From the NCBI GenBank assembly GCA_029565935.1, contig JAKQNF010000002.1, positions 67,065-131,064 of the forward strand: a DNA stretch of 64,000 nucleotides, read 5' to 3'. Positions within the stretch are counted from its first letter, which is position 1; the number at the start of each line of letters is the position of its first letter. The notes beneath the pieces were generated by a model, which did no database searches, was not told the origin of the DNA, and saw only the letters and a program-made list of their open reading frames with translations. The stretch is from Bacillota bacterium (GTDB lineage Bacteria; Bacillota; DTU025; MWDF01). Below, piece by piece: positions 49,304-64,000 of this stretch. A program made the translations under genes and the position numbers.

Positions 49304-50206
49304 ATGGACAATCGAGTTAAGAAATCCTATATCTTGTTGGCCTCGGTGGTGGCGGTTATCATAATCGCAGCAGCGGCTTGGGTCATCTTCAGCAAAGGTA
49401 CTGCGGTGGCGATGGTCAACGGAGAGAGGATAACCAGGAAGGCCTTCCTTGACAAGCTTGAGAACCAAGCAGGAACGCAGATACTCCAGGAGATGATAAA
49501 CGAGACGCTTCTGGCCCAAGAAGCCAAGAAGGCCGGTGTTTCCATAACCCAAGAGCGCGTTGACGAGGAGCTGGCGAAGGTGAAGACCAACCTCGGCGAC
49601 CAGTATGATTATGTGCTGAGCATGTACGGCATGACCGAGGCGAGCCTGCGCACCACCTTGGAACAGAACCTCCTCGCATTTGAGATATCGACCAAGGACA
49701 TAGTAGTCACCGAGGATCAGATTGCCGCCGATTACAAGGCCAATCCCGATTACTACCTGGAGCCCGCCCAGGTGAGGGCGAGCCATATCCTGGTTAGGAC
49801 CAAGGAAGAGGCCCAGGCGATCCTGGACGAGCTCAAGAAGGGCGCGGATTTCGTCGAGCTAGCAAAGACGAAGTCGATCGATACCGGCACCGCTGCGAAC
49901 GGCGGAGACCTCGGTTTCTTCGCCTCGGGCGCAATGACGGAGGCTTTCGAGACCGCGGCGTTCAAGCTCAACGTAGGACAGCTTTCACCGATAGTGGAGA
50001 CTGAGTATGGCTTCCATGTAATCCTCTGCACGGACAAGAAGGCGGAGAAGATGCCCACGCTAGAGGAAGCTCATGATCTGATAATCGAGAAGATCAAGGG
50101 TGAGCAGGCAAAGAACATCGACACACTGCTCCTTGAGATCAAGGATAAATCAACGGTGACCGTGACCGACAGCAAGTACGAATCGCTGAACGTCACGCAC
50201 GAGTAA
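49304..50206 (+). CDS. Parvulin-type peptidyl-prolyl isomerase (PrsA/SurA-like) with N-terminal membrane anchor
   Basis: An N-terminal TM helix is present. A SurA-N-like region is present. A PpiC domain (..ASHILVRTKEEAQAILDELKKGADFVELAKTKSIDTGTAANGGDLGFF..) is present. Confidence 0.7.
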   Translation: MDNRVKKSYILLASVVAVIIIAAAAWVIFSKGTAVAMVNGERITRKAFLDKLENQAGTQILQEMINETLLAQEAKKAGVSITQERVDEELAKVKTNLGDQYDYVLSMYGMTEASLRTTLEQNLLAFEISTKDIVVTEDQIAADYKANPDYYLEPAQVRASHILVRTKEEAQAILDELKKGADFVELAKTKSIDTGTAANGGDLGFFASGAMTEAFETAAFKLNVGQLSPIVETEYGFHVILCTDKKAEKMPTLEEAHDLIIEKIKGEQAKNIDTLLLEIKDKSTVTVTDSKYESLNVTHE

Positions 50207-50222
50207 AGTCGAGCCCTCTTTA

Positions 50223-50262
50223 CGGAGAAAAGCCTTCTTATAGGGGCTTTTCTCCGTTTTTT
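50223..50262 (+). terminator. Rho-independent terminator after the parvulin gene
   Basis: CGGAGAAAAGCC-loop-GGGCTTTTCTCCG is followed by TTTTTT. Confidence 0.5.
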
Positions 50263-50273
50263 AATTAGGTGGG

Positions 50274-51617
50274 GTGAAATTGGCAAGGACAATGGCAAAA
50301 GTAAAGAGCGTCGCTGCAGGCTCTCCTGCGGCAAGAGCCGGGCTCATGGCCGGGGACGTGGTTCTGGCCGTCGATGGCTACGAGATGATCGACATAATCG
50401 ATTGGCGGTTTCTCACGTCTGACTACTCCTTCACGATATTTGTGGAGCGTGGAGGCGTGGAACTTGAACTGCAGGTGTTCCGCGATGAGATGGCAGAGCT
50501 TGGCGTTGAGTTCGAAGACATTCTGTTCGACGGTATAAAGGAGTGCGCAAACAGGTGTGTATTCTGTTTCGTCGACCAGTTACCGGATGGAGTAAGGAGT
50601 AGCCTGTGCATCAAGGACGACGATTACAGGCTTTCTTTCCTGCAGGGAAATTTCGTTACGCTTACGAACTGCTCGAAGCGGACTCTGGACAGAATCGTGG
50701 AATTCAGGATGTCCCCAATTTACGTGTCGGTTCACGCGACCGATCCTGTGACGAGGAATCTCATGCTAGGGAGGAAGTCGACGAGACCAATAATGGAAGT
50801 GCTGCGATATCTCGGGGAAAACGGTATTGAGATGCACACCCAGATAGTGGTCGTACCCGGAATGAACGATGGGTACGTGCTTAAAAGGAGCATCGATGAG
50901 TTGTCCAGCCTTCGTCCAGGCTTGCTGTCGATCGGAATCGTACCGGTTGGACTTACTAAGCACAGGAAAGCACATGATAAGGTCCGTTCCGTTTCGGAGG
51001 ATGAAGCGAAACAAACCTTGGATCTTATCGAGGATTTCCAATCGAAATTCGTTTCGTCTTTCGGGACTAGGCTAGTATGGGCATCGGATGAATACTATCT
51101 GAAGGCGGGGCGGGATTTTCCAAACGGTTCATCCTATGAGGGTTACGTTCAGCTCGAAAACGGCATAGGTCTGGCAAGGTCTCTCTCAGACGACGTCGAA
51201 TGCTTACTTTCCAAAAACACGTGGGTAGGGAAGCTAGGAACATCAGACGGCTGGCTACTGACGGGAACGGATGGCGCGAAGGTGATCGGCCCTTTGCTGG
51301 ACAGAATCAAGATGGCATCAGGCTCTAGGGTAAGCATGGTGACTGTGCCGAGCACCTATTTCGGGGGCGGCGTGACGGTGACCGGCCTAGTTACCGGCAG
51401 CGACATCGTGTCAACGATAAACAGGATGGCAAGACGTCCTGAAGATGCAAGGAGACTCATCATCCCGGATGTCATGCTTAGGGATGGTGAGGATGTGTTC
51501 CTCGACGGCATGAGTGTGGACGAAGTAGCTGGCCTTTGCGACATGGACCTTAGTGTGGTCAGCACTGACGCATCAGGGTTGCTTGAGGCTGCCGGTATGC
51601 GAAGGAAGGCGGTATAG
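50274..51617 (+). CDS. PDZ-domain radical-SAM-like protein (DUF512 family), conserved upstream of der in Firmicutes
   Basis: An N-terminal PDZ (..VKSVAAGSPAARAGLMAGDVVLAVDG..) is present. A CANRCVFCF Cys cluster follows. It is 447 aa with a TTG start. Confidence 0.7.
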   Translation: MKLARTMAKVKSVAAGSPAARAGLMAGDVVLAVDGYEMIDIIDWRFLTSDYSFTIFVERGGVELELQVFRDEMAELGVEFEDILFDGIKECANRCVFCFVDQLPDGVRSSLCIKDDDYRLSFLQGNFVTLTNCSKRTLDRIVEFRMSPIYVSVHATDPVTRNLMLGRKSTRPIMEVLRYLGENGIEMHTQIVVVPGMNDGYVLKRSIDELSSLRPGLLSIGIVPVGLTKHRKAHDKVRSVSEDEAKQTLDLIEDFQSKFVSSFGTRLVWASDEYYLKAGRDFPNGSSYEGYVQLENGIGLARSLSDDVECLLSKNTWVGKLGTSDGWLLTGTDGAKVIGPLLDRIKMASGSRVSMVTVPSTYFGGGVTVTGLVTGSDIVSTINRMARRPEDARRLIIPDVMLRDGEDVFLDGMSVDEVAGLCDMDLSVVSTDASGLLEAAGMRRKAV

Positions 51618-51618
51618 G

Positions 51619-52950
51619 ATGACTACGAGACCGATGGTAGCGATAGTAGGAAGGCCCAACGTGGGAAAATCTGCCCTTTTCAACAGGATAATAAGGAGCA
51701 GGGTGTCAATCGTCGAAAGCCAGCCGGGTGTAACCAGAGACCGGATATATGCCGATACACAATGGCAGGGGATGGATTTCGTCATCATAGACACAGGTGG
51801 TATTACGACAGGAAAACAGGATCCTTTGAACGAGAAGGTCCGCGACCAGGCGGAAATCGCAGTCGAACAGGCATCGGTCGTCGTCTTCGTACTGGATGCG
51901 AAGACCGGGCTCATGGCAGAGGACGAAGATGTCGCCAACATAATCAGACATAGCAAGAAGCCTTGCGTGCTTTGCGTCAACAAGGTAGACGATCCAAGGC
52001 ACATGGATTATTCGTTTTGGTCTTTAGGGCTCGGTGAACCGCTCCCTGTGACGGCAGCCCACGGTACTGGAGTCGCAGAACTGCTGGATGCGATAGTCGA
52101 AAAACTCAAGGAGATGGGTTACAAGGAGAATGAGCAGGATGGAGAGACTGCCGAAAACGCCCCGATAAAAGTGGCGTTCGTAGGTAAGCCCAATGTAGGG
52201 AAGTCGTCCATCGTGAACAAATACATCGGCTACGAGAGAAGCATCGTGAGTGATATGCCAGGTACCACTAGGGATGCCATCGACATGGACATCGAAATCG
52301 AAGGAAGATCCTTCGTTCTGATAGACACTGCCGGAATAAGGCGCAAGCCCAGGATAGATACTTCGGTTGAATTCTACTCGGTGGTCAGGAGTATGTCTGC
52401 GATCGAGAGAAGCGACGTTGCCGTTATTGTGCTAGATGGTACCGAAGCTGTTTCTGAGCAGGACGTAAGGATAGCGGGTTTCGCCCATGAAGCTGGGAAG
52501 GCGGTCGTCATCGCTGTAAATAAATGGGATGTCATGGATAGAGAAGAAGGTTACCATGAAGAGAAGATAAAGGAGATTAAAGAGAAACTTTCCTATATGG
52601 ACTACGTTAAGGTTGTCTTTGTCTCAGCTAAGCAAGGAAGGCATCTTGATAGGCTGCTTAAGGCAATCATAGATGCGTTTGAAGCCAATAGAAGGCGCAT
52701 AGCGACAGCCGAGCTCAACAAGTTGCTTGAGGAGGCAGTCCTTCGGTTCCCGCCGCCAGGTGAAAAAGGCAGGCAGCCCAAGCTTCTCTACATTTCGCAG
52801 GTCAGAGTACAGCCTCCTACGTTTGTGCTGTTTACTAATTCACCGGACCTGGTCCATTTCTCCTATGTCAGGTACCTAGAGAACCTTATTCGCGGCGCAT
52901 ATGATTTTTCGGGAACGCCGATGATCATCCACCTAAGGAAGAGGAGTTGA
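51619..52950 (+). CDS. der: Ribosome-biogenesis GTPase Der (EngA), tandem G domains plus KH-like domain
   Basis: Two GxxxxGKS motifs are present (VAIVGRPNVGKSALFN; VAFVGKPNVGKSSIVN). An ATG at 51619 follows the upstream stop. The ORF-track start at 51553 is too early. Confidence 0.9.
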   Translation: MTTRPMVAIVGRPNVGKSALFNRIIRSRVSIVESQPGVTRDRIYADTQWQGMDFVIIDTGGITTGKQDPLNEKVRDQAEIAVEQASVVVFVLDAKTGLMAEDEDVANIIRHSKKPCVLCVNKVDDPRHMDYSFWSLGLGEPLPVTAAHGTGVAELLDAIVEKLKEMGYKENEQDGETAENAPIKVAFVGKPNVGKSSIVNKYIGYERSIVSDMPGTTRDAIDMDIEIEGRSFVLIDTAGIRRKPRIDTSVEFYSVVRSMSAIERSDVAVIVLDGTEAVSEQDVRIAGFAHEAGKAVVIAVNKWDVMDREEGYHEEKIKEIKEKLSYMDYVKVVFVSAKQGRHLDRLLKAIIDAFEANRRRIATAELNKLLEEAVLRFPPPGEKGRQPKLLYISQVRVQPPTFVLFTNSPDLVHFSYVRYLENLIRGAYDFSGTPMIIHLRKRS

Positions 52951-52956
52951 GCCCAC

Positions 52957-53568
52957 ATGGGGATTCTGGCATTGGCAATAGGGTACCTCATAGGGGCCCT
53001 GCCTTTCGGAATAGTGATGACCAAGCTGGTGTTGGGGATAGATATCAGGAAAGTTGGTTCCGGTAATACCGGGACGTCAAACGTAACCCGTGCGCTTGGT
53101 ATTGGCTATGGCTTCATCAACGCCGTTCTAGACATTTCCAAGGGGATAGTGCCTGTTCTGATAGCTAGGTCGATGGGTTTGAGCCTCGCTTGGCAGTGTG
53201 GTGTTTCCTTGGCAGCCGTCATCGGTCATAACTGGCCGATATATACGATGTTCAAGGGAGGAAAGGGTATAGCAACTAGTTTCGGGGCCCTGGTTGTACT
53301 TGAACCGCGATTTCTTCTAATAGTGCCCATATTTGCTATAATCGTCTTATCAACGCGGATTAAGTCTTTGGCTTCGATGACTTCCGCATTTCTGTTAATC
53401 CCTCTCTCCCTGATCCTTAAGGCGCCATGGGAGATCGTGATATTGACTATAGTGATATGCTGCATGGCCATTTATAGGCATAAGGACAACGTCAAGAGGC
53501 TTATGGCAGGGAAGGAGAACAAGATATCATATAAGCTGAAGCCCGATAGATCATTAAAGCAAAAATGA
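52957..53568 (+). CDS. plsY: Glycerol-3-phosphate acyltransferase PlsY
   Basis: LGIDIRKVGSGNTGTSNVTRALG..HNWPIYTMFKGGKGIATSFG are PlsY motifs. It is 203 aa. Confidence 0.85.
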   Translation: MGILALAIGYLIGALPFGIVMTKLVLGIDIRKVGSGNTGTSNVTRALGIGYGFINAVLDISKGIVPVLIARSMGLSLAWQCGVSLAAVIGHNWPIYTMFKGGKGIATSFGALVVLEPRFLLIVPIFAIIVLSTRIKSLASMTSAFLLIPLSLILKAPWEIVILTIVICCMAIYRHKDNVKRLMAGKENKISYKLKPDRSLKQK

Positions 53569-53583
53569 TGCAGGAGGGATCTT

Positions 53584-54267
53584 ATGTTCCTTATGGTCGC
53601 GTGGAAGGAGTTCGCAATAGACCTATGCCTTCTGGTGTTGTCGGTCTTGTTCGGATCCTTGGTGGGATATGAGAGGGAGGTACACGGCAAATCAGCAGGC
53701 CTTAGGACGCACGCGCTTGTTTGTGTAGGAGCATCTCTTCTTACCATTGTCTCCATGAGGGGCTTCGGTGCCTGGGAGGGTGGATTAAGAGACCCAGGTC
53801 GTATAGTAGGTCAAATGGTTGCCGGTATCGGTTTTTTGGGTGCAGGTACCATATTAAGAGACGGCTTGAGCATAAAAGGCCTTACGACGGCCGCCAGCCT
53901 ATGGGCGACCTGCATGATAGGCATTTCAGTAGGTGCAGGCCTCGTACAGTACGCTGCACTGGGAACATTACTGGTTGTCATAGTTCTCAGCCAGTTCAGC
54001 AAAGTTGAGCGCATGCTTTCTGTGAGAGCGTCTTCGATGCTTAAGATAACCGCCACTGACAGGCCGGGTCTCCTAGGTGACGTGGCCGCCTTGTTGGGAA
54101 GGTATTCGATAAATATACTTAAGAGCGAAATCAACAGCGATCTCGATACGGGCATAGTGATGATTGACCTGGAACTGAGGAAAGTCATAAAGGATACCCG
54201 AGTCTGTGACGTAATACATGAGCTGTCCAAGATACAGGGCGTCCGGAACTATGAGATCCGGGAATAG
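53584..54267 (+). CDS. MgtC/SapB-family membrane protein with C-terminal ACT-like domain
   Basis: The MgtC N-terminal TM region (..GSLVGYEREVHGKSAGLRTHALVCVGASLL..) is followed by a soluble ACT-like tail. Confidence 0.7.
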   Translation: MFLMVAWKEFAIDLCLLVLSVLFGSLVGYEREVHGKSAGLRTHALVCVGASLLTIVSMRGFGAWEGGLRDPGRIVGQMVAGIGFLGAGTILRDGLSIKGLTTAASLWATCMIGISVGAGLVQYAALGTLLVVIVLSQFSKVERMLSVRASSMLKITATDRPGLLGDVAALLGRYSINILKSEINSDLDTGIVMIDLELRKVIKDTRVCDVIHELSKIQGVRNYEIRE

Positions 54268-54274
54268 GAGATAT

Positions 54275-55060
54275 ATGAAGATCCTAGTTTCAAATGACGA
54301 TGGCATACACGCCGAAGGACTCGCGTCTTTGTGCAGTTGCCTTACCGAGGCTGGTTTCCAGGTGTACGTTTGCGCACCCGACAGGGAAAGAAGCGCAGCA
54401 AGCCATGCGCTTACGATGTATAGCCCACTTAGACTTATCGAGGTAGGTAATCCCAACTTCGATGCGTTTAGGGTATGGTCAGCCGATGGCACACCCGCAG
54501 ATTGCGTAAAGATAGCCCTAGAGCTTCTGATGAAATCGGATCCACCGGATTATGTGATCTCCGGAGTAAACAGAGGCCCGAATTTGGGCACTGATATCCT
54601 ATATTCCGGCACCGTCGCAGCGGCCGCCGAAGGGTGTTTCGCGGGCATTCCATCGCTTGCCGTCTCTTGTACCGATAAGATGAATCCAAACTACCAGACC
54701 GCATCCAAATTCGTCTCAGCGCATATATCTGACATATTTGCGAACGAACTGCCGCAGGGGACCATGCTTAACATAAACGTACCGGCCGACATAACGAGAC
54801 AAGTGGCCAACACTCCCTATATGTTTACACGGGCAGGGACCATGAAGTACGTCGATATATTCGACGTCAGGCACGATCCGCGAGGTAGGGAGTACATATG
54901 GATGTCAGGTAACCCCATGGACCTGGACATTGAAGAGGATTTCGATACTGTGGCCATCAAGAAAGGCCTAATATCCATTACACCAATCAAGTTTGATGTA
55001 ACGGATTACTCGTTGCTTGCGAAGCTTAGGAACAGTAGTGGTGGCCATAGGTTGCTATAA
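54275..55060 (+). CDS. surE: 5'/3'-nucleotidase SurE
   Basis: MKILVSNDDGIHAEGL is the canonical SurE N-terminus. The RBS AGGAG lies upstream. Its TAA stop lies inside dif-like site 2. Confidence 0.85.
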   Translation: MKILVSNDDGIHAEGLASLCSCLTEAGFQVYVCAPDRERSAASHALTMYSPLRLIEVGNPNFDAFRVWSADGTPADCVKIALELLMKSDPPDYVISGVNRGPNLGTDILYSGTVAAAAEGCFAGIPSLAVSCTDKMNPNYQTASKFVSAHISDIFANELPQGTMLNINVPADITRQVANTPYMFTRAGTMKYVDIFDVRHDPRGREYIWMSGNPMDLDIEEDFDTVAIKKGLISITPIKFDVTDYSLLAKLRNSSGGHRLL

Positions 55061-55078
55061 TATTTATTATGTAAACTT
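55051..55078 (+). other. dif-like XerC/XerD core site 2: GGTTGCTATAA-TATTTA-TTATGTAAACT
   Basis: The right arm is an 11/11 match to the B. subtilis dif XerD arm. It is 26/28 identical to site 1. It is immediately followed by TTCTAGG, which echoes the B. subtilis XerC arm on the opposite strand. Confidence 0.55.
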
Positions 55079-55093
55079 CTAGGTATAAAATAC

Positions 55094-55169
55094 TGGCAGG
55101 GGAGACAGGACTTGAACCCGCAACCCTCGGTTTTGGAGACCGATGCTCTGCCAATTGAGCTACTCCCCT
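55094..55169 (-). tRNA. trnW: tRNA-Trp (anticodon CCA)
   Basis: The cloverleaf was folded by eye. The acceptor is AGGGGAG/CTCCCCT with discriminator G plus CCA. The anticodon loop is CTCCAAA. The T-loop is GGTTCAAGTCC. It is about 80% identical to E. coli tRNA-Trp. Confidence 0.9.
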
Positions 55170-55262
55170 GCGATGGCGTATTCATATGCAATAAGTATTT
55201 TACGTGCACAAGGCGTTATTGTCAAATGATTTAAAAGTAGAATACCGTGAGGAGGTAGACTT

Positions 55263-55838
55263 ATGTCGGAGTTAAAAGTACCCGTAGGGATTTCGAACAG
55301 ACATCTTCATTTAAGCGAGGCCGACCTTCATAAACTATTTGGGGAAGGCGCTAGCCTTACAGTAAAGAAGGACCTCTCTCAGAAGGGTCAGTTCGCTTGC
55401 GAAGAAGTCGTAAACCTGATAGGACCCAAGGGCAGCCTCAATAATGTCAGGATACTCGGACCTACAAGGAAACAAACGCAGGTTGAAGTATCTAATACAG
55501 ATGCAAGGACTTTAGGTCTAGAGGCACCAGTACGCGACAGCGGGGACCTAAAGGAGAGCACCCCCATCAAGATAGTAGGGCCCAAGGGCGAGCTGAGCCT
55601 TACTGAAGGGTGCATAGTGGCTAAAAGGCACGTTCACATGAACGAAGAAGATGCCGCCAAGTATGGATTAAAGGACAGGCAGATCGTAAAGGTGGGCGTA
55701 AAGGGAAGCCGCGGGCTGGTATTTGACGAAGTCCTTATAAGGGTACATCCGACATTTGTGCTTGAAATGCATCTGGATACCGATGAGGCGAATGCCTGTG
55801 GCTTGAAGAACGGTGAATTGGTATCTGTCCTTTTATGA
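55263..55838 (+). CDS. pduL: PduL/EutD-type phosphate acyltransferase (phosphotransacylase), orphan
   Basis: VPVGISNRHLHLSEADL .. VAKRHVHMNEEDA are the two PduL repeat signatures. It is 191 aa. No microcompartment genes are nearby. Confidence 0.7.
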   Translation: MSELKVPVGISNRHLHLSEADLHKLFGEGASLTVKKDLSQKGQFACEEVVNLIGPKGSLNNVRILGPTRKQTQVEVSNTDARTLGLEAPVRDSGDLKESTPIKIVGPKGELSLTEGCIVAKRHVHMNEEDAAKYGLKDRQIVKVGVKGSRGLVFDEVLIRVHPTFVLEMHLDTDEANACGLKNGELVSVLL

Positions 55839-56287
55839 CCCCAGATGAAGTCAAGAAGGTCATGCTAGGTGATTCGCGGACTAGCACCGAGCTTGATTTC
55901 GGAAGTCAAAGGCATTATGAAGGCGGCTCATCGCTAGTAATACCTGTAATGCAAGATAGGTTGCTCATGGTATTCAATAATGCTCGCGATGGTTGGGAGT
56001 TCCCCGGAGGAAAGAGAAATGCCGGGGAATCTCCTTTACAATGTGCCGTAAGGGAACTATATGAAGAAACCGGCCTGACTGGTAGGGACTTCCTCAGGCT
56101 CTGTTCTTATAAGGTGGTCAAGGACGGTCTCGTTATGGACGGCGATATCTTTTCTTGCAAGATAGATACCTTACCGGTTGCATTTCTCGATACTAAAGTG
56201 TCTGGTGCTGGCCTTTTTTCAATTAGTCCGCATAAGCTAGCGATTACTGACGGTTACATTGAGTATTTCTTCGAATTATTGAAATAG
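55835..56287 (+). CDS. NUDIX hydrolase
   Basis: The Nudix box is GGKRNAGESPLQCAVRELYEETGL. Its ATG overlaps the pduL stop (ATGA), suggesting translational coupling. Confidence 0.7.
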   Translation: MTPDEVKKVMLGDSRTSTELDFGSQRHYEGGSSLVIPVMQDRLLMVFNNARDGWEFPGGKRNAGESPLQCAVRELYEETGLTGRDFLRLCSYKVVKDGLVMDGDIFSCKIDTLPVAFLDTKVSGAGLFSISPHKLAITDGYIEYFFELLK

Positions 56288-56746: not shown

Positions 56747-56750
56747 CTAA

Positions 56751-57215: not shown

Positions 57216-57830
57216 ATGCCTAATCTTAATGATAGAGAGGCGCAGATACTAAGCTTCATATCAAAGGAAGCTGCGGAGAAGGGTTTTCCCCCTTCCGTGA
57301 GAGAAATATGCGCTGCGGTAGGACTAAAATCAACATCTACAGTGCATGGTTATCTGAACTCACTAGAAAAGAAGGGTTTCATAAGGCGTGATCTCACAAA
57401 ACCAAGGGCAATCGACGTAATCCAGGATACGGTAGACTCAATCAACGTTAGGAGAATAGCAAAGGGAGTGCCTTTGGTAGGAGCTGTTACCGCAGGCATG
57501 CCAATACTGGCCACAGAGAACATCACCGACTATATCCCCCTACCCAAGGATTGGGTAGGCGACGACCAGGTATTTATGCTTAAGGTTAAGGGCGATAGTA
57601 TGATAGGTGCAGGAATCAATGAAAGTGACATGCTTATCGTAAGGAGTCAATCCGACGCTCAAAACGGTGAGATCGTAGTCGCGATGATAAATGATGAGGC
57701 GACGGTTAAGCGTATCTATAAAACGAAACAAGCTATAGAGCTTCATCCGGAGAATCCGGCATATCAAGTGATAATCTCACCGGATACCAAGGTAATAGGA
57801 AAAGTTATCGGGTTGCTCAGGAAAATATAA
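57216..57830 (+). CDS. lexA: LexA repressor
   Basis: MPNLNDREAQILSFISKEAAEKGFPPSVREICAAVGLKSTSTVHGYLNSLEKKGFIRR is the wHTH region. The C-terminal S24 peptidase has the Ala-Gly cleavage region and Ser/Lys dyad (..VKGDSMIGAGI..). The RBS CGAGGTG lies upstream. Confidence 0.9.
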   Translation: MPNLNDREAQILSFISKEAAEKGFPPSVREICAAVGLKSTSTVHGYLNSLEKKGFIRRDLTKPRAIDVIQDTVDSINVRRIAKGVPLVGAVTAGMPILATENITDYIPLPKDWVGDDQVFMLKVKGDSMIGAGINESDMLIVRSQSDAQNGEIVVAMINDEATVKRIYKTKQAIELHPENPAYQVIISPDTKVIGKVIGLLRKI

Positions 57831-57831
57831 T

Positions 57832-57858
57832 GCCCCGCTTTTTAGCGGGGCTATTCAT
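57832..57858. terminator. Terminator hairpin between lexA (+) and the convergent unknown gene (-)
   Basis: GCCCCGC-TTTTTA-GCGGGGC is followed by a T-rich tract. Confidence 0.4.
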
Positions 57859-57880
57859 ATTCATTTGGATACGTGCACCT

Positions 57881-58240
57881 CTAGGCCCTTATAGATGATG
57901 TATCCTTGATATCTTTCTTCTCTACCCCACATGCTCTGAAGAAAATCTCCAAAGCCTGTTTCGTACCCCTATCCTCCGGGTTACTGTTTTCAAGCTTGTC
58001 GTAGAAGTTGGGAAGCTGCTGATACCATTGTTTTGCCATGAATATCGCACTTTCAACACCCTCGTTGTTTATGACGCCAATTAGTTTGTCATAGGTGTTC
58101 CTTCTCGTTGAAGCTTGCTTCTCCCAGAAATCGGGGTTCTCGGTGAGCTGCGCAGCGAGGAGATCCTGTTTCGCGATGGCCCTGAAGCTCTCGAGCCCCC
58201 GCAGTATATCCTCGCTTGATATGAGGTGCATGTTACTCAC
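57881..58240 (-). CDS. Hypothetical soluble protein (119 aa), co-directional with and immediately downstream of the family-4 UDG
   Basis: The ORF has a clean ATG and lies 48 nt after the UDG stop. I recognise no motif (..ENPDFWEKQASTRRNTYDKLIGVINNEG..WYQQLPNFYDKLENSNPEDRG..). Confidence 0.4.
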   Translation of the reverse strand: MSNMHLISSEDILRGLESFRAIAKQDLLAAQLTENPDFWEKQASTRRNTYDKLIGVINNEGVESAIFMAKQWYQQLPNFYDKLENSNPEDRGTKQALEIFFRACGVEKKDIKDTSSIRA

Positions 58241-58288
58241 ACCTTTCCTATTATTCTGATGACCCTATATCTATTATACGATAATCTA

Positions 58289-58945
58289 TCACATTTCCTC
58301 TCTAAGTAAAGACATTACTTTCTTCATGTCATGCCATACGTCAATCTTCCTGGATGGGTCCCTGAGCAGGGCCGCAGGATGGAACGTAGGCATGTACTCT
58401 ATGTTGTCGGCTTCAATGAAGCTGCCCCTCGCCTTAGTTATACCTTCCTTCGTTCCTGGTATCATCGCCTTATAAGCGGTAGATCCTAATAGAACGATCA
58501 CTTTCGGTTTTATTATTTCAATTTGTCTTTTTAAATATACAATACAAGTATCTATTTCATCCTTTTCGGGAACTCTATTGCTAGGTGGTCGACACTTGAC
58601 TACATTACCTATGAATACTTCCTCTCTTTTTAGGCCCATCGCATTGATTATCGCATCCAAGAGCCTTCCAGCAGCTCCTACGAAGGGCCTGCCTTTTACG
58701 TCTTCATCGGCGCCGGGCCCTTCTCCTATGAACATAATCCTGGCATCTAGGCTACCCTCACCAGGAACTGTATTTATCCTTGTAGATCCTAGTTTGCATG
58801 ATTGGCACTTGGCGACTTCGTTAATCACGGTAGCCATAAGTACGTTCTTGTCATAGATGCCCATGTTGATAATGGGTTCCTCGTCTTTATTCTGCGACTT
58901 TCCAGCAAATAAGTTTAGCTGCTCATCAGTGTTCAATGGGGTCAC
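58289..58945 (-). CDS. udg: Uracil-DNA glycosylase, family 4 (thermophile-type UDG, 4Fe-4S)
   Basis: ..CQSCKLGSTRINTVPGEGSLDARIMFIGEGPGADEDVKGRPFVGAAGRLLD.. is a family-4 UDG motif (GEGPG, FVG.AG). It is 218 aa. Confidence 0.8.
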   Translation of the reverse strand: MTPLNTDEQLNLFAGKSQNKDEEPIINMGIYDKNVLMATVINEVAKCQSCKLGSTRINTVPGEGSLDARIMFIGEGPGADEDVKGRPFVGAAGRLLDAIINAMGLKREEVFIGNVVKCRPPSNRVPEKDEIDTCIVYLKRQIEIIKPKVIVLLGSTAYKAMIPGTKEGITKARGSFIEADNIEYMPTFHPAALLRDPSRKIDVWHDMKKVMSLLREEM

Positions 58946-58958
58946 TCCCAGAAAGTAA

Positions 58959-58987
58959 TTGCACTTACATAGCTTCTGTTATATCAT
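58959..58987 (+). promoter_or_regulatory. Putative sigma-A promoter of the tRNA-Pro/tRNA-Leu pair (TTGCAC - 17 nt - TATCAT)
   Basis: Read directly. The -10 ends 21 nt before tRNA-Pro. Confidence 0.35.
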
Positions 58988-59008
58988 ATTATTTGTCTAA
59001 ACAGCAGT

Positions 59009-59085
59009 CGAGGTGTAGCGCAGTTTGGTAGCGCGCTTGGTTCGGGACCAAGAGGCCCCGGGTTCAAGTCCCGGCACCTCGACCA
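59009..59085 (+). tRNA. tRNA-Pro (anticodon CGG)
   Basis: The acceptor is CGAGGTG/CACCTCG plus A plus CCA. The D-stem is GCGC. The anticodon stem CTTGG/CCAAG has loop TTCGGGA. The T-arm is CCGGGTTCAAGTCCCGG. Confidence 0.9.
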
Positions 59086-59091
59086 TTTTTT

Positions 59092-59175
59092 GCGAGAGTG
59101 GCGGAACGGCAGACGCACCAGACTTAGGATCTGGCGAGGCGACTCGTGCGGGTTCAAGTCCCGCCTCTCGCACCA
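59092..59175 (+). tRNA. tRNA-Leu (anticodon TAG), long variable arm
   Basis: The acceptor is GCGAGAG/CTCTCGC plus A plus CCA. The anticodon stem CCAGA/TCTGG has loop CTTAGGA. The long extra arm is typical of tRNA-Leu. The T-arm is GCGGGTTCAAGTCCCGC. Confidence 0.9.
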
Positions 59176-59442
59176 TTAAGCTCATTTTACAATATCGACC
59201 TTCGATGTTAACACCTCTAAATACGCGTATTAATCATTGGTACTTTTTACTCCAATGAAATATGCCATGCCTTCTCCCCTATTCCCTATGTCAACTAATG
59301 CATAGGATTAAAATAAGGCACAAATTCTTAATGTCTTAAACACGTATAATGTATCGGTGGGCTTCCCCGGCTTGCTTAGTAATTCTGAACTAGCTCACTA
59401 TAGAATAGCTGATGTTAACGCGATTATAGGAGGCAATTGTAA

Positions 59443-60573
59443 GTGGAATTCAGAGACCTGAAAAAGCAATATCAAATGCTCAAGGAGGAAATCAATCAAG
59501 CCATATTAGATGTCGTAAAAGACGGTAATTACATCCTTGGTACGCAAGTTAGCCAGCTTGAGGATGAGTTAAGCGAATTCTCAGGAAGTAAACATTGCGT
59601 GTGCTGTGGTAATGGTACTGATGCATTGATTCTAGCTCTCATGTATTGGAATATTGGCCCTGGTGATGCAGTGTTCGTTCCGGATTTTACCTGCTTTGCA
59701 TCAGTGACCTGCATACTGACTAGAGGAGCAGAACCGGTATTTGTCGATATTGATTTGAAAACCTTCAACATGGATCCCAACTCTTTAGAAGAAGCCGTTT
59801 TGAACGTTACTCGTGAAGGTCGCATTAGGCCGCGGGTAATCATACCTGTCGATCTCTTCGGCCTCCCAGCGGACTATGGCAGAATTCTTGAGATTGCTCG
59901 AAAATACTCCCTCCTCGTACTTGAAGATGCCGCCCAGAGCTTTGGGGCATCAATCAATGGACGTAGAACATGCAGCTTCGGAGATATTTCGACAACTTCC
60001 TTTTTCCCAAGCAAACCTCTGGGTTGTTACGGGGATGGCGGGGCTTTGTTCACTGGTTCTAGGGAGATTGCCGACCGTCTAAAATCCATGAGATTTCTTG
60101 GAAGGTCGGTAGCTGATCAGTATGACAATATAAACATCGGCTTGAACTCCAGGCTAGATACATTACAGGCGGCAATACTGTTGAAGAAGCTAAGAGCTTT
60201 CAAAGAATACGAGCTTGACTGTGTTACCAGGATTGCTGAATACTACTCTAGCCTACTGAAGAACGTGGTATCGATTCCCAGAATTCCAGAGGATTTTTAC
60301 TCAAGTTGGGCCCAGTATACGATACTTTTGGAAAATGAAGCACAAAGAGATAGCCTTAAGGATTACCTGAGTACGTTGGGAGTTCCATCAGCAGTTTATT
60401 ATCCTCGCCCTATGCACTTGCAGAAGGCATGCGAAGGTTTGGCAACTCCCCTAGTATCCCTCGCCAACTCAGTTCATGCATCCAAATGTGCACTCTCTTT
60501 ACCGATGCACCCTTACCTAACTGATGAAGAAGTTGAGATGATTACTACAACTATCATAGAGCACATAGGCTGA
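59443..60573 (+). CDS. DegT/DnrJ/EryC1/StrS-family PLP-dependent sugar aminotransferase
   Basis: ..VCCGNGTDALILALM.. and the Lys-PLP motif region (..FFPSKPLGCYGDGGALF..) are present. It is 376 aa. The GTG start follows the RBS TAGGAGG. GC is about 41%, against about 58% in the core. Confidence 0.85.
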   Translation: MEFRDLKKQYQMLKEEINQAILDVVKDGNYILGTQVSQLEDELSEFSGSKHCVCCGNGTDALILALMYWNIGPGDAVFVPDFTCFASVTCILTRGAEPVFVDIDLKTFNMDPNSLEEAVLNVTREGRIRPRVIIPVDLFGLPADYGRILEIARKYSLLVLEDAAQSFGASINGRRTCSFGDISTTSFFPSKPLGCYGDGGALFTGSREIADRLKSMRFLGRSVADQYDNINIGLNSRLDTLQAAILLKKLRAFKEYELDCVTRIAEYYSSLLKNVVSIPRIPEDFYSSWAQYTILLENEAQRDSLKDYLSTLGVPSAVYYPRPMHLQKACEGLATPLVSLANSVHASKCALSLPMHPYLTDEEVEMITTTIIEHIG

Positions 60574-60616
60574 CATCCAAGTAGAAATCCATAGATAATG
60601 CTAGGTTCCAGAATAG

Positions 60617-60646
60617 TGAAGGCAGGAGATCTCTCCTGCCTTCACT
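60617..60646. repeat. Perfect 30-bp palindrome GTGAAGGCAGGAGAT|CTCTCCTGCCTTCAC, 44 nt after the DegT stop
   Basis: Read directly as 15-bp arms with no loop. No U-tract follows on either strand, so it is not a canonical intrinsic terminator. Confidence 0.6.
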
Positions 60647-61151
60647 AGCATACTAGATGCATTTTCTTAACGCACAAATACCTTTCCTTTATAGATCAAC
60701 ACTCCTGCGATCCCAAAACCCGTTTACAAAGAAGTATCATAACCGCCAGCATTTCGCCCATTCAACGTAGATATATCTATTCTAGGCATCTACCATCGTT
60801 CTGATGTATAATTTTTCAACCACCAATTATCATGATTAAGCCTCCTCCCATTCTGAATTCAAGGCCATCTATGTTACTCTGCAGTATAACGCAGTCATGA
60901 TACCTCTGTTATAATAACGCCAAGGATTGTGTATCGTTGCATCTTTTTCTTCCTTTAGTGAACTCATATACATATCGAGCTAGAGACGCCATTCCTTGAC
61001 CTTTTCTTTGTCAATGGATAAGATGCCCCGGTAATATTTACCTCTATCTCTCATCCTCCATGCTTCCCTACGACCAACATTAAACATTGTATTAGAATCA
61101 TCTTATCCATTTATCCGCATATGAGCATACTTTGTTGTTATCTGGACTCGT

Positions 61152-62873
61152 CTATTTCGCTGGCATCAGTTTGCCGCCTCCTACCAGGGTTATCGTCTTG
61201 CCACTGAGCCAGGAATTGTCCTTGTTCTTCGAATCATAATATACGTTATGTCCGTTGCTGATGATGTTTGCCAAGCTGTTGTCGCCATCCTTCATCACTG
61301 TAACATACGAATCTGCCGTGACTTTCCAGGTACTCTTACCGTCCAGGCTCAGTGAGACGAATTTAGCTGTCTTCTCCTTATTAATCGCTCCTTCTAATAT
61401 GGATTCGTTCTTCAACACTAAAGATGCAGTGCTGATGCCATCTAGAACAACATCGCCACTAAGCTTCTGTGAATCCGCATTAAGAGTGATATCTGCTCCA
61501 TTAGACCCCGAATTACCCCATTGGTCCGCCCCGGCTTTGAGCAATATCCCTGATGAGCCACTAATTTTGACACTCTTGAGGTTGATTATGCATGCTGTAT
61601 TGGTTGAGTAGAATACTGGACCCTCCGTGACCGTAAGCGACCCTCCGCTCATAGTAAATGTACCGCTGCCTACTGTCGCGTCGCCTGACATGCTCTGATA
61701 GATGAACACCCCATAGTTCTTCTCTGACTTCGCATTGCAATCAGATAATGTTATCGAGTTCTTCCCTTCAATAACGGCTACTTCCGAGGTAATTGATCGC
61801 AGTGTGGCATTGCTTACTTCTATAGCACCAGTTGAGTATATGGCTGGTGATTTCGTACCTTTAGTCAGGACTGTCCCGCCTTTGGCGATTATCGTCCCTC
61901 CTCCCCTGTCCGTCGCTATGGCAGCAGCTGCCCCGTTTCCTGAAGTAGTGATATCGACGTTCTCCATGACAATCTTGCCCCCGATCGTCGCGTCAACCCC
62001 ATGGGCTCCTGAAGCAGCACAATCGATGGTGACTCCATTCAGTTCGATATAGGATCCGCTACCACATGCAAATATGCCGTTAGCTCCGGTGCCGGTGGTC
62101 GTTACGTCCGTATCCTTAATAGTCAGCTTACTCCCCGCCTTCACAAGTAGGGCTGCGTTCAATCCATAGAAGCTGCTGTTATCCATCGATGACGTGTTGC
62201 CAGAAGTCGTTATCTGCATGCTTGTGATCGCGAGTGAGCCGCCATTCGACACAATAACGGCTGATTGGTCGTCGGTCGTGGCCTTCAAGGTGCCTTCCGA
62301 TTTCTTGGCAGTCCCGCTCGATAATGCATAGACTGCAGTCCCTGTTACGATTGTCGTATCGGAAGCAGCCTGACCGCCAGGAACACTAGTCTGCCCACTT
62401 GGGGCTGCAGGTGGAGTACCACCAGGTTGTGACCCGAGCATGATGTGTATGAGGGAAGGGTTCTTGGCTCCTGAATCAAATGTCATCTGAAGGTAGGCAC
62501 CTACCTTAATATCGGATAATTTTGCTGCACTTGCAGCCGATCCGGGTCCTTGCATCCCTTGCATGGTTATCTTGCAGGAATTAGTGACCGTAAACGTTTT
62601 AGTCTCTCCTGACAACGTGAGTATCTCCGGGGGGCTTGCTTGTCCTCCGCCGGGCATTGGAGGCGCACCTTCGCTAGTTGGAGGCGCTTGCTGCGGCTGC
62701 CCACCTGCCTGCTGCTTTAGCGTACCTAACGCTACCGTTATCTCCGTTCCATTTATCTTTGTTACCTTGCCGTACAATGTGGTCTGCCCGTCCTCTGCAT
62801 AAGCGCACCCTACGATGAACAAGAACATGCCTATTATCAATATCGCTGAGAACAACCCTCTTTTCGGCTTCAT
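61152..62873 (-). CDS. Secreted or lipid-anchored right-handed beta-helix (pectin-lyase-fold) repeat protein, Gly/Pro/Gln-rich linker
   Basis: A signal peptide MKPKRGLFSAILIIGMFLFIVGCAYA (possible lipobox VGC) is present. A low-complexity GGQPQQAPP..PGGGQ linker follows. About 400 aa of Thr/Ser/Gly/Asn-rich repeats (..SGNTSS.., ..TTSGNGAAAA..) match parallel beta-helix adhesin or lyase folds. Confidence 0.6.
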   Translation of the reverse strand: MKPKRGLFSAILIIGMFLFIVGCAYAEDGQTTLYGKVTKINGTEITVALGTLKQQAGGQPQQAPPTSEGAPPMPGGGQASPPEILTLSGETKTFTVTNSCKITMQGMQGPGSAASAAKLSDIKVGAYLQMTFDSGAKNPSLIHIMLGSQPGGTPPAAPSGQTSVPGGQAASDTTIVTGTAVYALSSGTAKKSEGTLKATTDDQSAVIVSNGGSLAITSMQITTSGNTSSMDNSSFYGLNAALLVKAGSKLTIKDTDVTTTGTGANGIFACGSGSYIELNGVTIDCAASGAHGVDATIGGKIVMENVDITTSGNGAAAAIATDRGGGTIIAKGGTVLTKGTKSPAIYSTGAIEVSNATLRSITSEVAVIEGKNSITLSDCNAKSEKNYGVFIYQSMSGDATVGSGTFTMSGGSLTVTEGPVFYSTNTACIINLKSVKISGSSGILLKAGADQWGNSGSNGADITLNADSQKLSGDVVLDGISTASLVLKNESILEGAINKEKTAKFVSLSLDGKSTWKVTADSYVTVMKDGDNSLANIISNGHNVYYDSKNKDNSWLSGKTITLVGGGKLMPAK

Positions 62874-63093
62874 TTGCCTGCATCCCCTTCATAGTCTTGT
62901 GATACATGGATTCTCTTGCTGGCATTATATTACTCAAGCATTGTTACAGTTTTTTGTACGCTATGTCACATTTCTGTGAATATGATAAACAGCCATTCGG
63001 GAATATCATCTTAAACAAAATGGGCGGCAGTATTGATCTGCCGCCCATTCTGGAACCTTCAATGGATGCGATATCGATAGATATGTGAGGGTA

Positions 63094-63978
63094 TTAAAGG
63101 CTTATATGCTCGTTTATTTCGTCCAATGCCTCCATGGTAGCCTTTACTCCCATATCGATTATCTCTTCGGCCCTATAGAATTCGTGTGCCAGAACACCTT
63201 CTATCGCCGGCCTTATCCTAATGTCAGAATGGTGTATTACCATCTTCACAAGACGCTCTTGGAAAATATCGAAGCTGTTGAGGAGCACGGCTATCATATT
63301 AGGTTCGCCTTTTATCCCGGATTTTGACACGTCCGGAACGACATCCACGCCAATAACCACGTCCAGGCCCAACGCCGTCAGATAGTCGCTTGGTACGGGG
63401 TTCGAGACGGCCCCGTCCACGAAGTACTCGTTCTCTATCTTATGAGGTACGAATATGCCCGGCATCGATATAGAAGCCCTTATGGCACTCCATACCGGTC
63501 CATTGTCAAAAGCTTTCTCCTCTCCCGTCTTAATGTTCGTGGCTATCGCTACGAAAGGTACCCTAGTAGCTGCAAAGCTTGCGTTATGGGTCAACTCCAT
63601 GAGCAGCTTCCTTATCCTGCCGCCCCTTATGAGGCCCGACCTGGTCGTGATGCCCAGATCCATGTATCTGATGATGTCGGTCTGCCTAATGGATACGGCG
63701 AGCTCGGTAAGCTCCCGCACGCTCATCCCGCATGCGTAGGCACCTCCTACCAGGGCTCCTGCGCTGCATCCTACTATGGCGTCTATGGGTATAGAATTAT
63801 CTTCCAATACCTTCATCACGCCAATGTGCGCAAGCCCTCTCGCTGCGCCGGATCCCAGCGCCAGTCCTATCGTCTTGCGGTTTAGACCTTGCTTTATCGC
63901 ATTGATTCTTTCTTTTGAGTTCCTAAGGTAATTCTCGTCGGCTAGCGCCCTGCTGATACTATCGAACATGATCTTCAC
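63094..63978 (-). CDS. Patatin-like phospholipase
   Basis: An oxyanion GSGAARG is present. A GCSAG nucleophile elbow (GxSxG) is present. A catalytic DGA/DGG motif (..VDGAVSNPVP..) is present. It is 294 aa. Confidence 0.8.
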   Translation of the reverse strand: MKIMFDSISRALADENYLRNSKERINAIKQGLNRKTIGLALGSGAARGLAHIGVMKVLEDNSIPIDAIVGCSAGALVGGAYACGMSVRELTELAVSIRQTDIIRYMDLGITTRSGLIRGGRIRKLLMELTHNASFAATRVPFVAIATNIKTGEEKAFDNGPVWSAIRASISMPGIFVPHKIENEYFVDGAVSNPVPSDYLTALGLDVVIGVDVVPDVSKSGIKGEPNMIAVLLNSFDIFQERLVKMVIHHSDIRIRPAIEGVLAHEFYRAEEIIDMGVKATMEALDEINEHISL

Positions 63979-64000
63979 CTCAGCAAGAAGTTAACTTCAG

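Follow-up and report, generated by a model that had tools for sequence, protein, structure and literature searches.

The question raised by this locus is what kind of sequence occupies the last 14 kb of the window, the whole 64,000-nt stretch that was analysed, where the GC content falls and the genes lose their common orientation. An earlier note on the letters had read it as a possible replication terminus neighbourhood or, alternatively, as a join between compositionally different sequences. Our analysis indicated that these 14 kb very probably form the region in which chromosome replication terminates in an uncultured member of the Bacillota, with the dif site at 56566-56593 at its centre. 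Features of this kind are ordinary, here seen in a new lineage; all that stands out is how steeply the AT-rich dip falls and the presence of two further dif-like sites.

Skew and gene orientation

GC skew was positive as far as about 56.5 kb, with values of +0.06 to +0.18, and largely negative beyond it, and AT skew changed sign at the same place (about 56.5-58 kb). The cumulative G-C curve flattened into a plateau between 56.5 and 58 kb and reached its maximum there, at 57,832; skew and gene order were followed over 74 kb (the window and a 10-kb extension), and the maximum is a local one within this range. From 1 to 56.5 kb all real genes were on the + strand with the single exception of tRNA-Trp(cca) (55094-55169, -), the only head-on gene of the left arm. 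Strands alternated at 55.1-60.6 kb, and from 61.1 kb all genes were on the - strand, continuing at least 10 kb past the window, so that co-orientation spans at least 56 kb on the left and at least 13 kb on the right. The polar motif GGGNAGGG was found 15:1 in favour of the + strand on the left arm and 3:3 on the short right arm. Two replichores converging here, with the + strand leading on the left (1-56.5 kb) and the - strand leading on the right (from about 61 kb), would explain why both skews and the gene orientation switch. The sliding-window profiles that the earlier note had proposed as a check gave a trough plus a skew sign change at about 56.5-58 kb. Its terminus reading was supported by this sign change, which fits converging forks, by the passage from all + to all - genes and by a deeply conserved dif exactly at the switch, and the loss of co-orientation that it had placed past about 55 kb agreed with the alternating strands. 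A local inversion boundary at the skew switch is a formal alternative, 74 kb being all that was seen.

The last co-oriented genes of the left replichore were der, plsY, mgtC-ACT and surE (51619-55060, +), identified by Pfam and by synteny in relatives. On the right, the co-oriented block began with the conserved patatin-like phospholipase gene (63094-63969, -), followed by genes for an RNaseH-like protein, unk411, Met-gamma-lyase, miaA, SAM-MT, mutL, mutS and miaB, all on the - strand.

The predicted chromosomal dif site and its recombinases

Three dif-like 28-mers were present in the window, at 35482-35509 (+, site 1), 55050-55077 (+, site 2) and 56566-56593 (-, site 3), and the 13-mer TTATTATGTAAAC was found twice against 0.01 expected by chance. 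Read on the - strand, site 3 consists of ATGTCGCATAA (XerC arm), TACACA (central region) and TTATGTAAACT (XerD arm) in the canonical 11-6-11 layout; this XerD arm is identical to the arm of Bacillus subtilis dif. At the same place in six genomes, the 24-nt core TTWACATAATGTGTATTATGCGACRT was nearly invariant (two variable positions), whereas column identity averaged 52% over the intergenic alignment around it; the genomes sharing the site reached down to about 50% protein identity. Because of this near-invariance at one position, site 3 is the predicted chromosomal dif, chosen over site 2 by its conservation and by its position between convergent genes at the skew switch. Each of 71 metagenome contigs contained the core exactly once, and in about 35 of these contigs the genes beside it were the same; it was likewise single copy in unrelated taxa. 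No strain SNP fell inside the 28-mer, and the neighbouring base 56594 was polymorphic. Compared with B. subtilis dif, site 2 had 5 mismatches and site 3 had 7. Of the two dif-like sites that the earlier note had placed in this region, site 3 showed full dif-like behaviour and site 2 was kept mainly in its XerD arm.

Both recombinase genes were found in the window. The XerC/CodV-like gene (714-1661, +) matched Pfam Phage_integrase and Phage_int_SAM_1, and its best NCBIfam model was XerC TIGR02224 with 328 bits, just below the cut-off of 335; the product scored above the cut-off of the tyrosine recombinase model NF001399. It lies directly upstream of hslV-hslU, as codV lies upstream of hslVU in B. 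subtilis. The xerD gene (35531-36436, +) scored 350.8 bits against NCBIfam XerD TIGR02225 (cut-off 329.6) and had Pfam matches, and its homologues at about 50% identity are named XerD. As inferred from the family, XerC and XerD would bind the two dif arms, strand exchange across the 6-bp central region would resolve chromosome dimers, and a septal FtsK/SpoIIIE-type translocase would place the terminus before resolution.

Genes around dif

On the left of dif, tRNA-Trp, with a predicted promoter TTGACA-17-TAAAAT at 55225-55197, was followed by the genes for PduL (phosphate propanoyltransferase), a nudix hydrolase and a zinc-ribbon protein (55263-56521, +; Pfam), and this gene order beside dif was seen in about 35 metagenome contigs and in genome loci. 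A perfect 15-bp hairpin with A and T runs on its flanks (56702-56744), between dif and the yneA-like gene, is a predicted bidirectional terminator. The yneA-like gene encodes a small membrane protein (56751-57071, -) and is divergent from lexA (57216-57830, +; Pfam LexA_DNA_bind and Peptidase_S24); its predicted promoter is TTGACA-17-TATACT at 57140-57112. Between the two lies a candidate Cheo-type LexA box, CGAACAAATGTTTG (57148-57161), called by the consensus of the B. subtilis SOS box. Of the SOS pair lexA/yneA named in the earlier note, lexA was therefore confirmed by Pfam, and the yneA half was left with a sub-threshold match to the NCBIfam YneA model NF010723 (E 1.9e-9, 37 bits, cut-off 60) and no match to Pfam LysM. 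Beyond lexA came a conserved 116-aa all-helical protein (57881-58231, -), which always adjoins lexA in the clade, a family 4 uracil-DNA glycosylase gene, udg (58289-58945, -; Pfam UDG, and NCBIfam TIGR00758 above cut-off), and tRNA-Pro(cgg) with tRNA-Leu(tag) (59009-59175, +), conserved in relatives. The three tRNA genes noted before were thus recovered, Trp on the - strand and Pro and Leu on the + strand, and Pfam agreed with the identities given to LexA, PduL, DegT, Der, PlsY and SurE.

Two additional sites built around the XerD arm

Site 1, GGATGCTATAATAATTATTATGTAAACA, combines an extended -10 element (TGCTATAAT) with the XerD-arm motif and lies 22 nt upstream of the xerD start codon. The motif ATATTATGTAAACA was kept upstream of xerD in four family genomes and was absent from three more distant XerD loci. 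Since site 1 overlaps the xerD promoter, it may be an XerD autoregulatory operator. Site 2, GGTTGCTATAATATTTATTATGTAAACT, is inverted relative to dif, from which it is separated by 1.5 kb; it overlaps the surE stop codon and lies 17 nt from the 3' end of tRNA-Trp. It was present at the same position in seven family genomes, with mainly the XerD arm kept and the central region variable, and was absent from the DTU025-like clade. Both sites are family-conserved sequences built around the XerD arm. Their presence blurs the 'single copy' criterion for dif.

Site 1 and xerD recall the difSL-xerS arrangement of streptococci and lactococci, in which a Xer target-like sequence is also found directly upstream of the recombinase gene. 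Unlike difSL, site 1 is distinct from the chromosomal dif: 21 kb separate it from the skew switch, and its conservation is limited to the XerD arm. The system here is also of the two-recombinase XerC/XerD type rather than the XerS type.

The AT-rich trough

In 2-kb windows, GC was 0.54-0.63 over 1-49 kb, 0.52 at 50-52 kb, 0.49 at 52-55 kb and 0.43-0.45 at 56-62 kb, an overall fall from about 0.57 to 0.40-0.45 across 49-61 kb that the hand counts of the earlier note had approximated well. The lowest 500-nt value, 0.398, was reached at 56.25-56.75 kb and at 60.5-61.25 kb. GC recovered partially to 0.50 at 62-64 kb and was back at 0.57-0.63 by 66-73 kb in the extension, so the profile is a symmetric trough and not a step. 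By GC and GC3 profiles it occupies 49300-64000 of the window and extends as a whole from about 49 kb to about 66 kb, with its centre at 56.5-60 kb.

The change was concentrated at third codon positions. GC3 was 0.512 in genes within 5 kb of dif (n=11) and 0.720 +/- 0.040 in those beyond 12 kb (n=44), a difference far beyond chance (Mann-Whitney p = 3.7e-7), whereas GC1 and GC2 shifted much less (0.50 far from dif, 0.45 near it). GC3 correlated with distance from dif (Spearman rho 0.81-0.85), with slopes of +0.018 and +0.023 per kb, one for each side. The genes der, plsY, mgtC-ACT and surE had GC3 of 0.55-0.58, in line with the intermediate composition earlier ascribed to der, plsY and surE. 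Because the low GC is graded, symmetric and mostly confined to synonymous third positions of core genes, the trough is a regional substitution bias on conserved core genes and not foreign DNA.

With the same orthologues, the trough was present in the nearest relative (GC3 from 0.72 to 0.51), less pronounced in the relatives with about 62% identity and almost gone in DTU025. The DTU025-like clade shares both the dif and the synteny yet lacks the trough, which implies that a terminus alone is insufficient to make one. Strain SNP density showed no peak at dif. As a proposal, the most likely cause is AT-biased mutation that would be offset less well near dif, the offsetting forces being recombination-associated GC-favouring processes or selection; a higher local load of AT-biased mutation at the meeting point of the forks is nearly as likely. 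A 3.9-kb slot of lineage-specific cargo (degT and a secreted protein) makes the trough deeper.

Published AT trends at termini are generally shallow, a few GC3 points across hundreds of kb, whereas here GC3 loses 20-30 points over about 8-10 kb to either side of dif. This drop is also lineage-specific, being absent from the sister clade in spite of its shared dif and synteny. What is shared with bacterial terminus regions in general is a surrounding sequence more AT-rich than the genome average, as PMC3091660 states with reference to Worning et al. 2006. According to PMC11879095, recombination correlates with GC and often declines towards Ter.

Alternative explanations of the region

A chimera of assembly or binning, in which a 57% GC genome had been misjoined to one of about 45% GC at about 50-53 kb, would account for a GC loss of more than 10 points within a few kb, and several MAG contigs of the species and its relatives do end near the region (L005, L006 and L011 start at 55099, L012 stops at 55141, and L014-L016 end 1-6 kb from it). 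However, collinearity at 99.3-100% identity was seen among six assemblies that came from separate samples and used three different styles of contig name; five of them spanned 45-64 kb or 49-59.6 kb, and the sixth ran from 53.1 kb to beyond the window end. GC declines gradually, at third codon positions, and climbs to 0.57-0.63 past 66 kb, and on either side of the supposed join L014, L017 and L018 matched best and kept the gene order. The synteny check suggested earlier gave the same order across 50-53 kb in relatives at 89%, about 62% and about 52% SurE identity. The collinear independent assemblies and a gene order kept down to about 50% protein identity exclude the chimera, whose probability we put close to nil. 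It is also very unlikely that the whole of 50-64 kb is a horizontally acquired low-GC island, perhaps inserted at a tRNA gene. In favour of an island, the stretch brings together low GC, three tRNA genes and mixed strands, and a lineage-specific variable slot (59176-63093) does exist, with content differing between relatives. It holds a degT-family aminotransferase gene (59443-60573, +; Pfam) and a gene for a predicted 573-aa secreted beta-helix-like protein (61152-62873, -), separated by a 578-nt AT-rich non-coding gap; both are absent from L017 and L018, and the nearest relative (Bin153) has mscL in their place after tRNA-Leu. Outside the slot, all genes are syntenic orthologues in family and order-level relatives, which refutes the island as an explanation of the whole region; no integrase, transposase or att direct repeat was found in this stretch, and the GC change in der, plsY, surE and lexA is graded, symmetric and far larger at GC3 than at GC1 and GC2. 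Only degT and the secreted-protein gene (59.2-63.1 kb) are lineage-specific cargo. The earlier description of degT and pduL as accessory low-GC cargo therefore applies to degT and not to pduL, which belongs with the nudix, zinc-ribbon, lexA, udg and tRNA genes to the syntenic core of the clade.

Two further readings concern the dif-like sites, and both are very improbable. Sites 2 and 3 might bound a mobile or invertible Xer-dependent module of the IMEX or dif-module type, containing tRNA-Trp, pduL and the nudix and zinc-ribbon genes, given that two inverted sites flank a 1.5-kb segment as in the pdif modules of Acinetobacter, for which PMC12907356 describes additional chromosomal dif-like sites and modules. 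Some contigs also break inside tRNA-Trp, beside site 2, but breaks within a tRNA gene are expected from repeat collapse. The content and orientation of the segment are identical in seven family genomes, the same genes adjoin dif in the DTU025-like clade without site 2, the central regions differ (TATTTA and TACACA), and site 2 shows poor conservation in its left arm. The likeness to Acinetobacter pdif modules and IMEX is a short gene segment between inverted Xer sites; unlike them, it carries housekeeping-like genes and unmatched central regions, with no sign of mobility across the family. The region might otherwise be an ordinary boundary of convergent gene blocks away from the true terminus, with AT-rich promoter-like palindromes as its dif-like sites, since skew and gene strand are confounded over the 74 kb seen and sites 1 and 2 each contain the perfect extended -10 element. 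Site 3, being downstream of both flanking genes, has no promoter role; its core is near-invariant where clade proteins share only about 50% identity and is single copy in unrelated taxa, and the co-oriented gene blocks, at least 56 kb long to the left and at least 13 kb to the right, also argue for the terminus.

Comparison with Bacillus subtilis dif

In B. subtilis, dif lies in the terminus region near lexA-yneA, and CodV and RipX correspond to XerC and XerD. That dif has the 11-6-11 layout, with CodV binding the left arm and RipX the right (PMC5357621). The present locus shares a 28-bp site with two 11-bp arms and a 6-bp centre at the skew switch, two recombinase genes, and a nearby lexA with a divergent yneA-like gene and a Cheo-type box. 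It differs in having two additional conserved XerD-arm sites and a predicted dif that lies just 0.6 kb from lexA. The XerC arm and centre of site 3 (ATGTCGCATAA TACACA) are also unlike those of B. subtilis, and its inner arm resembles the E. coli type (CGCATAA).

Composition of the region and integrity of the contig

Sliding-window composition showed that the GC content of the window was 0.54-0.63 over 1-49 kb before declining, first to 0.52 in 50-52 kb, then to 0.49 in 52-55 kb, and finally to 0.43-0.45 in 56-62 kb, with 500-nt minima of 0.398 at 56.25-56.75 kb and 60.5-61.25 kb and a partial recovery to 0.50 at 62-64 kb. These values agreed with the hand counts from which a sharp GC drop had been claimed in an earlier note on this sequence. 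Exact-protein look-ups located this DNA in many public assemblies. In a 10-kb extension, taken from a public contig that was 100% identical to the window over their overlap, GC returned to 0.57-0.63 by 66-73 kb. Since GC recovered to the right of the window, the drop is a symmetric valley from ~49 to ~66 kb, here called the trough, rather than a step.

A join between compositionally different sequences, such as a chimera at about 50-53 kb, had been proposed in the earlier note as the alternative to a replication terminus. Six assemblies from different samples, with contig names in the MEGAHIT-style k141, SPAdes-style NODE, and JGI forms, were aligned to the window. Four of the six matched it collinearly at 99.98-100% identity, from 45.3 kb to either 64 or 62.8 kb; one spanned 49.4-59.6 kb, and one was a strain variant of 99.3-99.5% identity that ran from 53.1 kb past the window end. 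The species-level relatives compared were “Firmicutes bacterium ADurb.Bin153” (Bin153; SurE 89% identical), four uncultured Clostridia MAGs (60-63%), and DTU025 and UBA1393 (52%). They shared the order der-plsY-mgtC-surE-tRNA-Trp-pduL-nudix-Zn-ribbon-[dif]-yneA-like-lexA-116-aa gene-udg-tRNA-Pro/Leu-patatin-RNaseH-like-...-miaA, unchanged across 50-53 kb. The chimera was thus refuted by the reproduction of the supposed join in six collinear assemblies, the far-side recovery of GC, the matching of the same relatives on both sides, and the conserved synteny. The contig is sound, and the sharp drop is no misjoin.

Four contigs ended within tRNA-Trp: L005, L006, and L011 started at 55099 and L012 ended at 55141, L005 and L011 being one and the same NCBI contig. 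These ends probably reflect the collapse of repeated tRNA sequence, which is a simpler explanation than a structural polymorphism beside the neighbouring dif-like site 2. The strain variant L008 was identical to the window over 53,093-55,806 and ~0.65% diverged from 55,807 rightwards, a mosaic-like pattern that suggests a recombination breakpoint within pduL, ~0.8 kb left of dif.

Skew inversion and gene order at the predicted terminus

GC skew was positive until ~56.5 kb and mostly negative thereafter, and the sign of the AT skew flipped at the same spot. Over 74 kb of sequence, the cumulative G-C curve reached its maximum at 57,832, with a plateau at 56.5-58 kb. To the right of the window all genes lie on the minus strand, and the right-hand minus-strand genes are patatin, an RNaseH-like gene, a 411-aa gene, Met-gamma-lyase, miaA, a SAM methyltransferase, mutL, mutS, and miaB. 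A leading-to-lagging sign change of the GC skew and an inverted gene-strand bias, as expected of a terminus, were both observed: two co-oriented gene blocks of opposite strand and opposite skew converge and meet at 56.5-61 kb. Together with the dif described below, these inversions supported the terminus reading of the earlier note. Counted as a polar, translocase-guiding motif (KOPS or SRS type), GGGNAGGG was informative for the left arm only, where its strand ratio was 15:1; along the 17 kb of the right arm the ratio was 3:3, and purine skew and gene strand confound both counts.

The three tRNA genes noticed earlier were all found by both ARAGORN and Rfam, namely tRNA-Trp (55094-55169, minus strand), tRNA-Pro (59009-59085, plus strand), and tRNA-Leu (59092-59175, plus strand). 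The genes supported by Pfam were, in order, a PrsA-like PPIase, DUF512, Der, PlsY, MgtC-ACT, and SurE, followed by PduL, a Nudix hydrolase, a zinc-ribbon protein, LexA, a family 4 UDG, DegT, and a patatin-like protein. Of the lexA/yneA pair named in the earlier note, lexA was thereby confirmed, while the gene divergent from it had no match to Pfam LysM and matched the NCBIfam YneA model only under its cut-off. The two genes are separated by a Cheo-type box, CGAACAAATGTTTG, at 57148-57161.

DNA-repair and SOS genes gather around dif at 55835-58945 (nudix, YtkD/MutT-like; the yneA-like gene; lexA; family 4 UDG), and mutS and mutL lie 13-17 kb to its right. In DTU025 (L019, 14505-18108), dinB, DUF72, and fpg additionally sit between pduL and dif. 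A fourth tRNA gene, Pro(ggg) on the minus strand, was present between patatin and the RNaseH-like gene in two relatives (L017, 15909-15986; L018, 15954-16031), and sequence similar to it was found in the extended contig at ~64.04-64.15 kb, just past the window end.

The predicted chromosomal dif

A scan of the window with reference dif sequences yielded three dif-like 28-mers. Site 3, at 56566-56593 on the minus strand, reads ATGTCGCATAA-TACACA-TTATGTAAACT on that strand, with two arms of 11 bp, partially palindromic, that flank a centre of 6 bp, and differed at 5-7 of 28 positions from the dif sequences of H. influenzae, the Firmicutes consensus, and B. subtilis. An 11-6-11 layout, in which the left arm is bound by CodV and the right arm by RipX, has been described for dif (PMC5357621). 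Site 3 is non-coding, lying 45 nt past the last plus-strand gene and ahead of the terminator of the first minus-strand gene, and falls within the 56.5-58 kb plateau of cumulative skew; in the work of Kono et al., the distance between dif and the skew shift points was within ~1.4% of genome length (PMC3025954). Two further dif-like sites were present within 21 kb of it.

Conservation of site 3 was pronounced. In an intergenic alignment of six genomes with a mean column identity of 52%, the core TTWACATAATGTGTATTATGCGACRT varied at only two positions. Among strains, no polymorphism fell within the 28-mer, and the neighbouring base 56594 was polymorphic. A JGI metagenome scan found the 21-nt core ACATAATGTGTATTATGCGAC in 71 contigs, one copy each; about 35 of these shared the surroundings pduL-nudix-Zn-ribbon and lexA-116aa-udg, with proteins 50-65% identical, and the rest came from unrelated taxa of 27-66% GC. 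These contigs of unrelated organisms (L102, L108-L110, L114, L124, L127, and others), many of them from non-digester metagenomes, carried a single core without any of the neighbouring genes of the window.

Genes for both recombinases were located in the window. The xerD gene (35531-36436) matched an NCBIfam equivalog above its cut-off. A XerC-like recombinase (714-1661) scored 328 bits against a cut-off of 335 and lies upstream of hslVU, the same place as codV in B. subtilis. Since the layout, the skew position, the syntenic conservation, and the presence of xerC-like and xerD genes are combined, site 3 has the usual characteristics of a chromosomal dif and is predicted to be that of this lineage. 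Site 2 was the other candidate and is the nearest to B. subtilis dif by mismatches, but its left arm and centre vary among relatives and the DTU025-like clade lacks it, whereas site 3 is nearly invariant. Both sites had been called dif-like in the earlier note; as a dif, only site 3 was retained.

Dif-like sites 1 and 2

Site 1 (35482-35509) and site 2 (55050-55077), both on the plus strand, agreed at 25 of 28 positions, and their XerD arm was common to both and to dif. A 13-mer that both sites contain was observed 2 times against a chance expectation of 0.01. The start codon of xerD follows 22 nt downstream of site 1, which includes a perfect extended -10 element, TGCTATAAT. The motif ATATTATGTAAACA upstream of xerD was kept in four family genomes, with a differing sequence to its left, and was absent from three XerD loci at ~52% identity. 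We infer that site 1 is a putative xerD promoter combined with a putative XerD operator. In the literature on XerD autoregulation or xerD-proximal dif-like sites, the only precedent found was difSL-xerS, for which autoregulation was proposed speculatively (PMC1914069). The XerD-arm motif in the predicted xerD promoter is a testable lead on the autoregulation of a housekeeping recombinase.

Site 2 covers the stop codon of surE; a distance of 17 nt separates it from the tRNA-Trp 3' end, and its orientation is opposite to that of dif, 1.5 kb away. It occupied the same position in seven family genomes, with a conserved XerD arm and a variable left arm and centre. A pair of inverted sites might delimit an IMEX or another mobile or invertible dif module. 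This is unlikely because the 1.5 kb that separate sites 2 and 3 were fixed in content and orientation in the seven family genomes and the two central regions differ; moreover, the same genes flank dif in the clade that has no site 2.

GC3 bias in core genes around dif

The trough was mainly attributed to third codon positions. GC3 was 0.720 ± 0.040 for the 44 genes farther than 12 kb from dif and 0.512 ± 0.059 for the 11 genes within 5 kb of it (Mann-Whitney p = 3.7e-7), and the GC1/GC2 mean moved only from 0.50 to 0.45. Along the sequence, GC3 was 0.57 in der, 0.56 in plsY, mgtC, and surE, 0.52 in pduL, 0.44-0.46 in nudix, the yneA-like gene, lexA, and udg, and 0.44 in degT, and then 0.60 in patatin, 0.67 in the 411-aa gene, 0.78 in miaA, and 0.80 in mutS. 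For genes less than 12 kb from dif, GC3 correlated with distance (Spearman rho 0.81 for all genes, 0.85 without lineage-specific genes), with slopes per kb of +0.018 to the left and +0.023 to the right. Orthologues in Bin153 also dipped, from 0.72 to 0.51. The dip was shallower in the relatives at ~62% identity (0.70 to 0.51-0.60) and nearly gone in DTU025 (0.80 to 0.71-0.77), and DTU025-like metagenome contigs had no GC dip around dif.

Because the change is graded, symmetric, and concentrated at third positions of syntenic core genes, the trough is a regional substitution bias, unlike foreign DNA. Introgression from a lower-GC relative was rejected as its cause, since protein identity to the nearest relative showed no systematic fall across the trough and that relative shares the trough. 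AT-richer termini are established (PMC3091660), and recombination often falls towards Ter and correlates with GC (PMC11879095); the steepness of the trough and its restriction to one lineage make it stand out from these. As the favoured cause, a GC-favouring force would be locally short near dif, against universal AT-biased mutation. AT-biased mutagenesis local to fork fusion is a close second. Strain SNP density had no peak at dif: a mutation hot spot visible in that density was rejected, and the density did not separate a shortfall of the GC-favouring force from local mutagenesis. An unlikely reading is a lineage-specific, dif-centred mutational footprint, with a GC3 loss of 20-30 points within ~10 kb on each side of dif, that would come from a local fork-fusion or Xer/translocase process. 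The trough family also has both extra conserved XerD-arm sites; on this reading the one in the xerD promoter would mean XerD autoregulation, and the inverted one 1.5 kb from dif could serve to load XerD, to stop a translocase, or to regulate locally. If the trough and the extra sites were linked, this family would offer a natural setting in which to study the influence of termination and dimer resolution on how sequences evolve locally.

A terminus with dif is a known kind of feature, found here in a new lineage, of which the steep GC3 trough and the XerD-arm sites are modestly unusual. Knowing where the predicted terminus and dif lie in this uncultured Bacillota lineage from anaerobic digesters aids genome finishing, coverage-based estimates of replication rate, and binning, since terminus segments of low GC can break assemblies or end up in the wrong bin. 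Neither foreign DNA nor a misjoin need be assumed when GC drops sharply and locally in a metagenome contig. In addition, the occurrence of the trough in one family and not in a sister clade whose dif and gene order are the same provides a clean comparison, which could ask whether a recombination deficit or local mutagenesis lowers terminus GC.

The accessory slot and other observations

Variation in gene content was confined to a slot of ~3.9 kb (59.2-63.1 kb) downstream of tRNA-Pro/Leu. In this species the slot is occupied by degT, an AT-rich gap of 578 nt, and a secreted protein of 573 aa that gives a faint beta-helix signal; in Bin153 it holds mscL, and in L017 and L018 nothing. An island integrated at a tRNA gene was considered for the region, but no integrase, transposase, att repeat, or repeated tRNA 3' end was found in 54.9-63.3 kb, the absence from relatives was limited to the slot, and the compositional change was graded and heavy in GC3, so that the 50-64 kb stretch was not classed as an island. 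The accessory region claimed for the last 14 kb accordingly shrinks to this slot, since elsewhere the genes are syntenic core genes in relatives, and pduL, once listed as cargo, adjoins dif throughout the clade.

The gap in the slot (60574-61151) comprises 578 nt without ORFs of at least 50 aa and has the lowest GC (0.40) and the most negative GC skew (-0.27) of the window. Its small ORFs (60.6-61.15 kb) contained nothing recognisable by inspection, and it may be a decayed minus-strand gene. Directly after degT, a perfect 16-bp hairpin was observed at 60614-60647. On the left arm, a local GC peak of 0.61-0.63 at 19000-23000 coincided with a very high AT skew of 0.33-0.39 in a 1094-aa ORF (19800-23084). 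A single plus-strand ORF at 47059-49227 joins IspH (LytB) to four S1 RNA-binding domains, a fusion that was present in all relatives examined.
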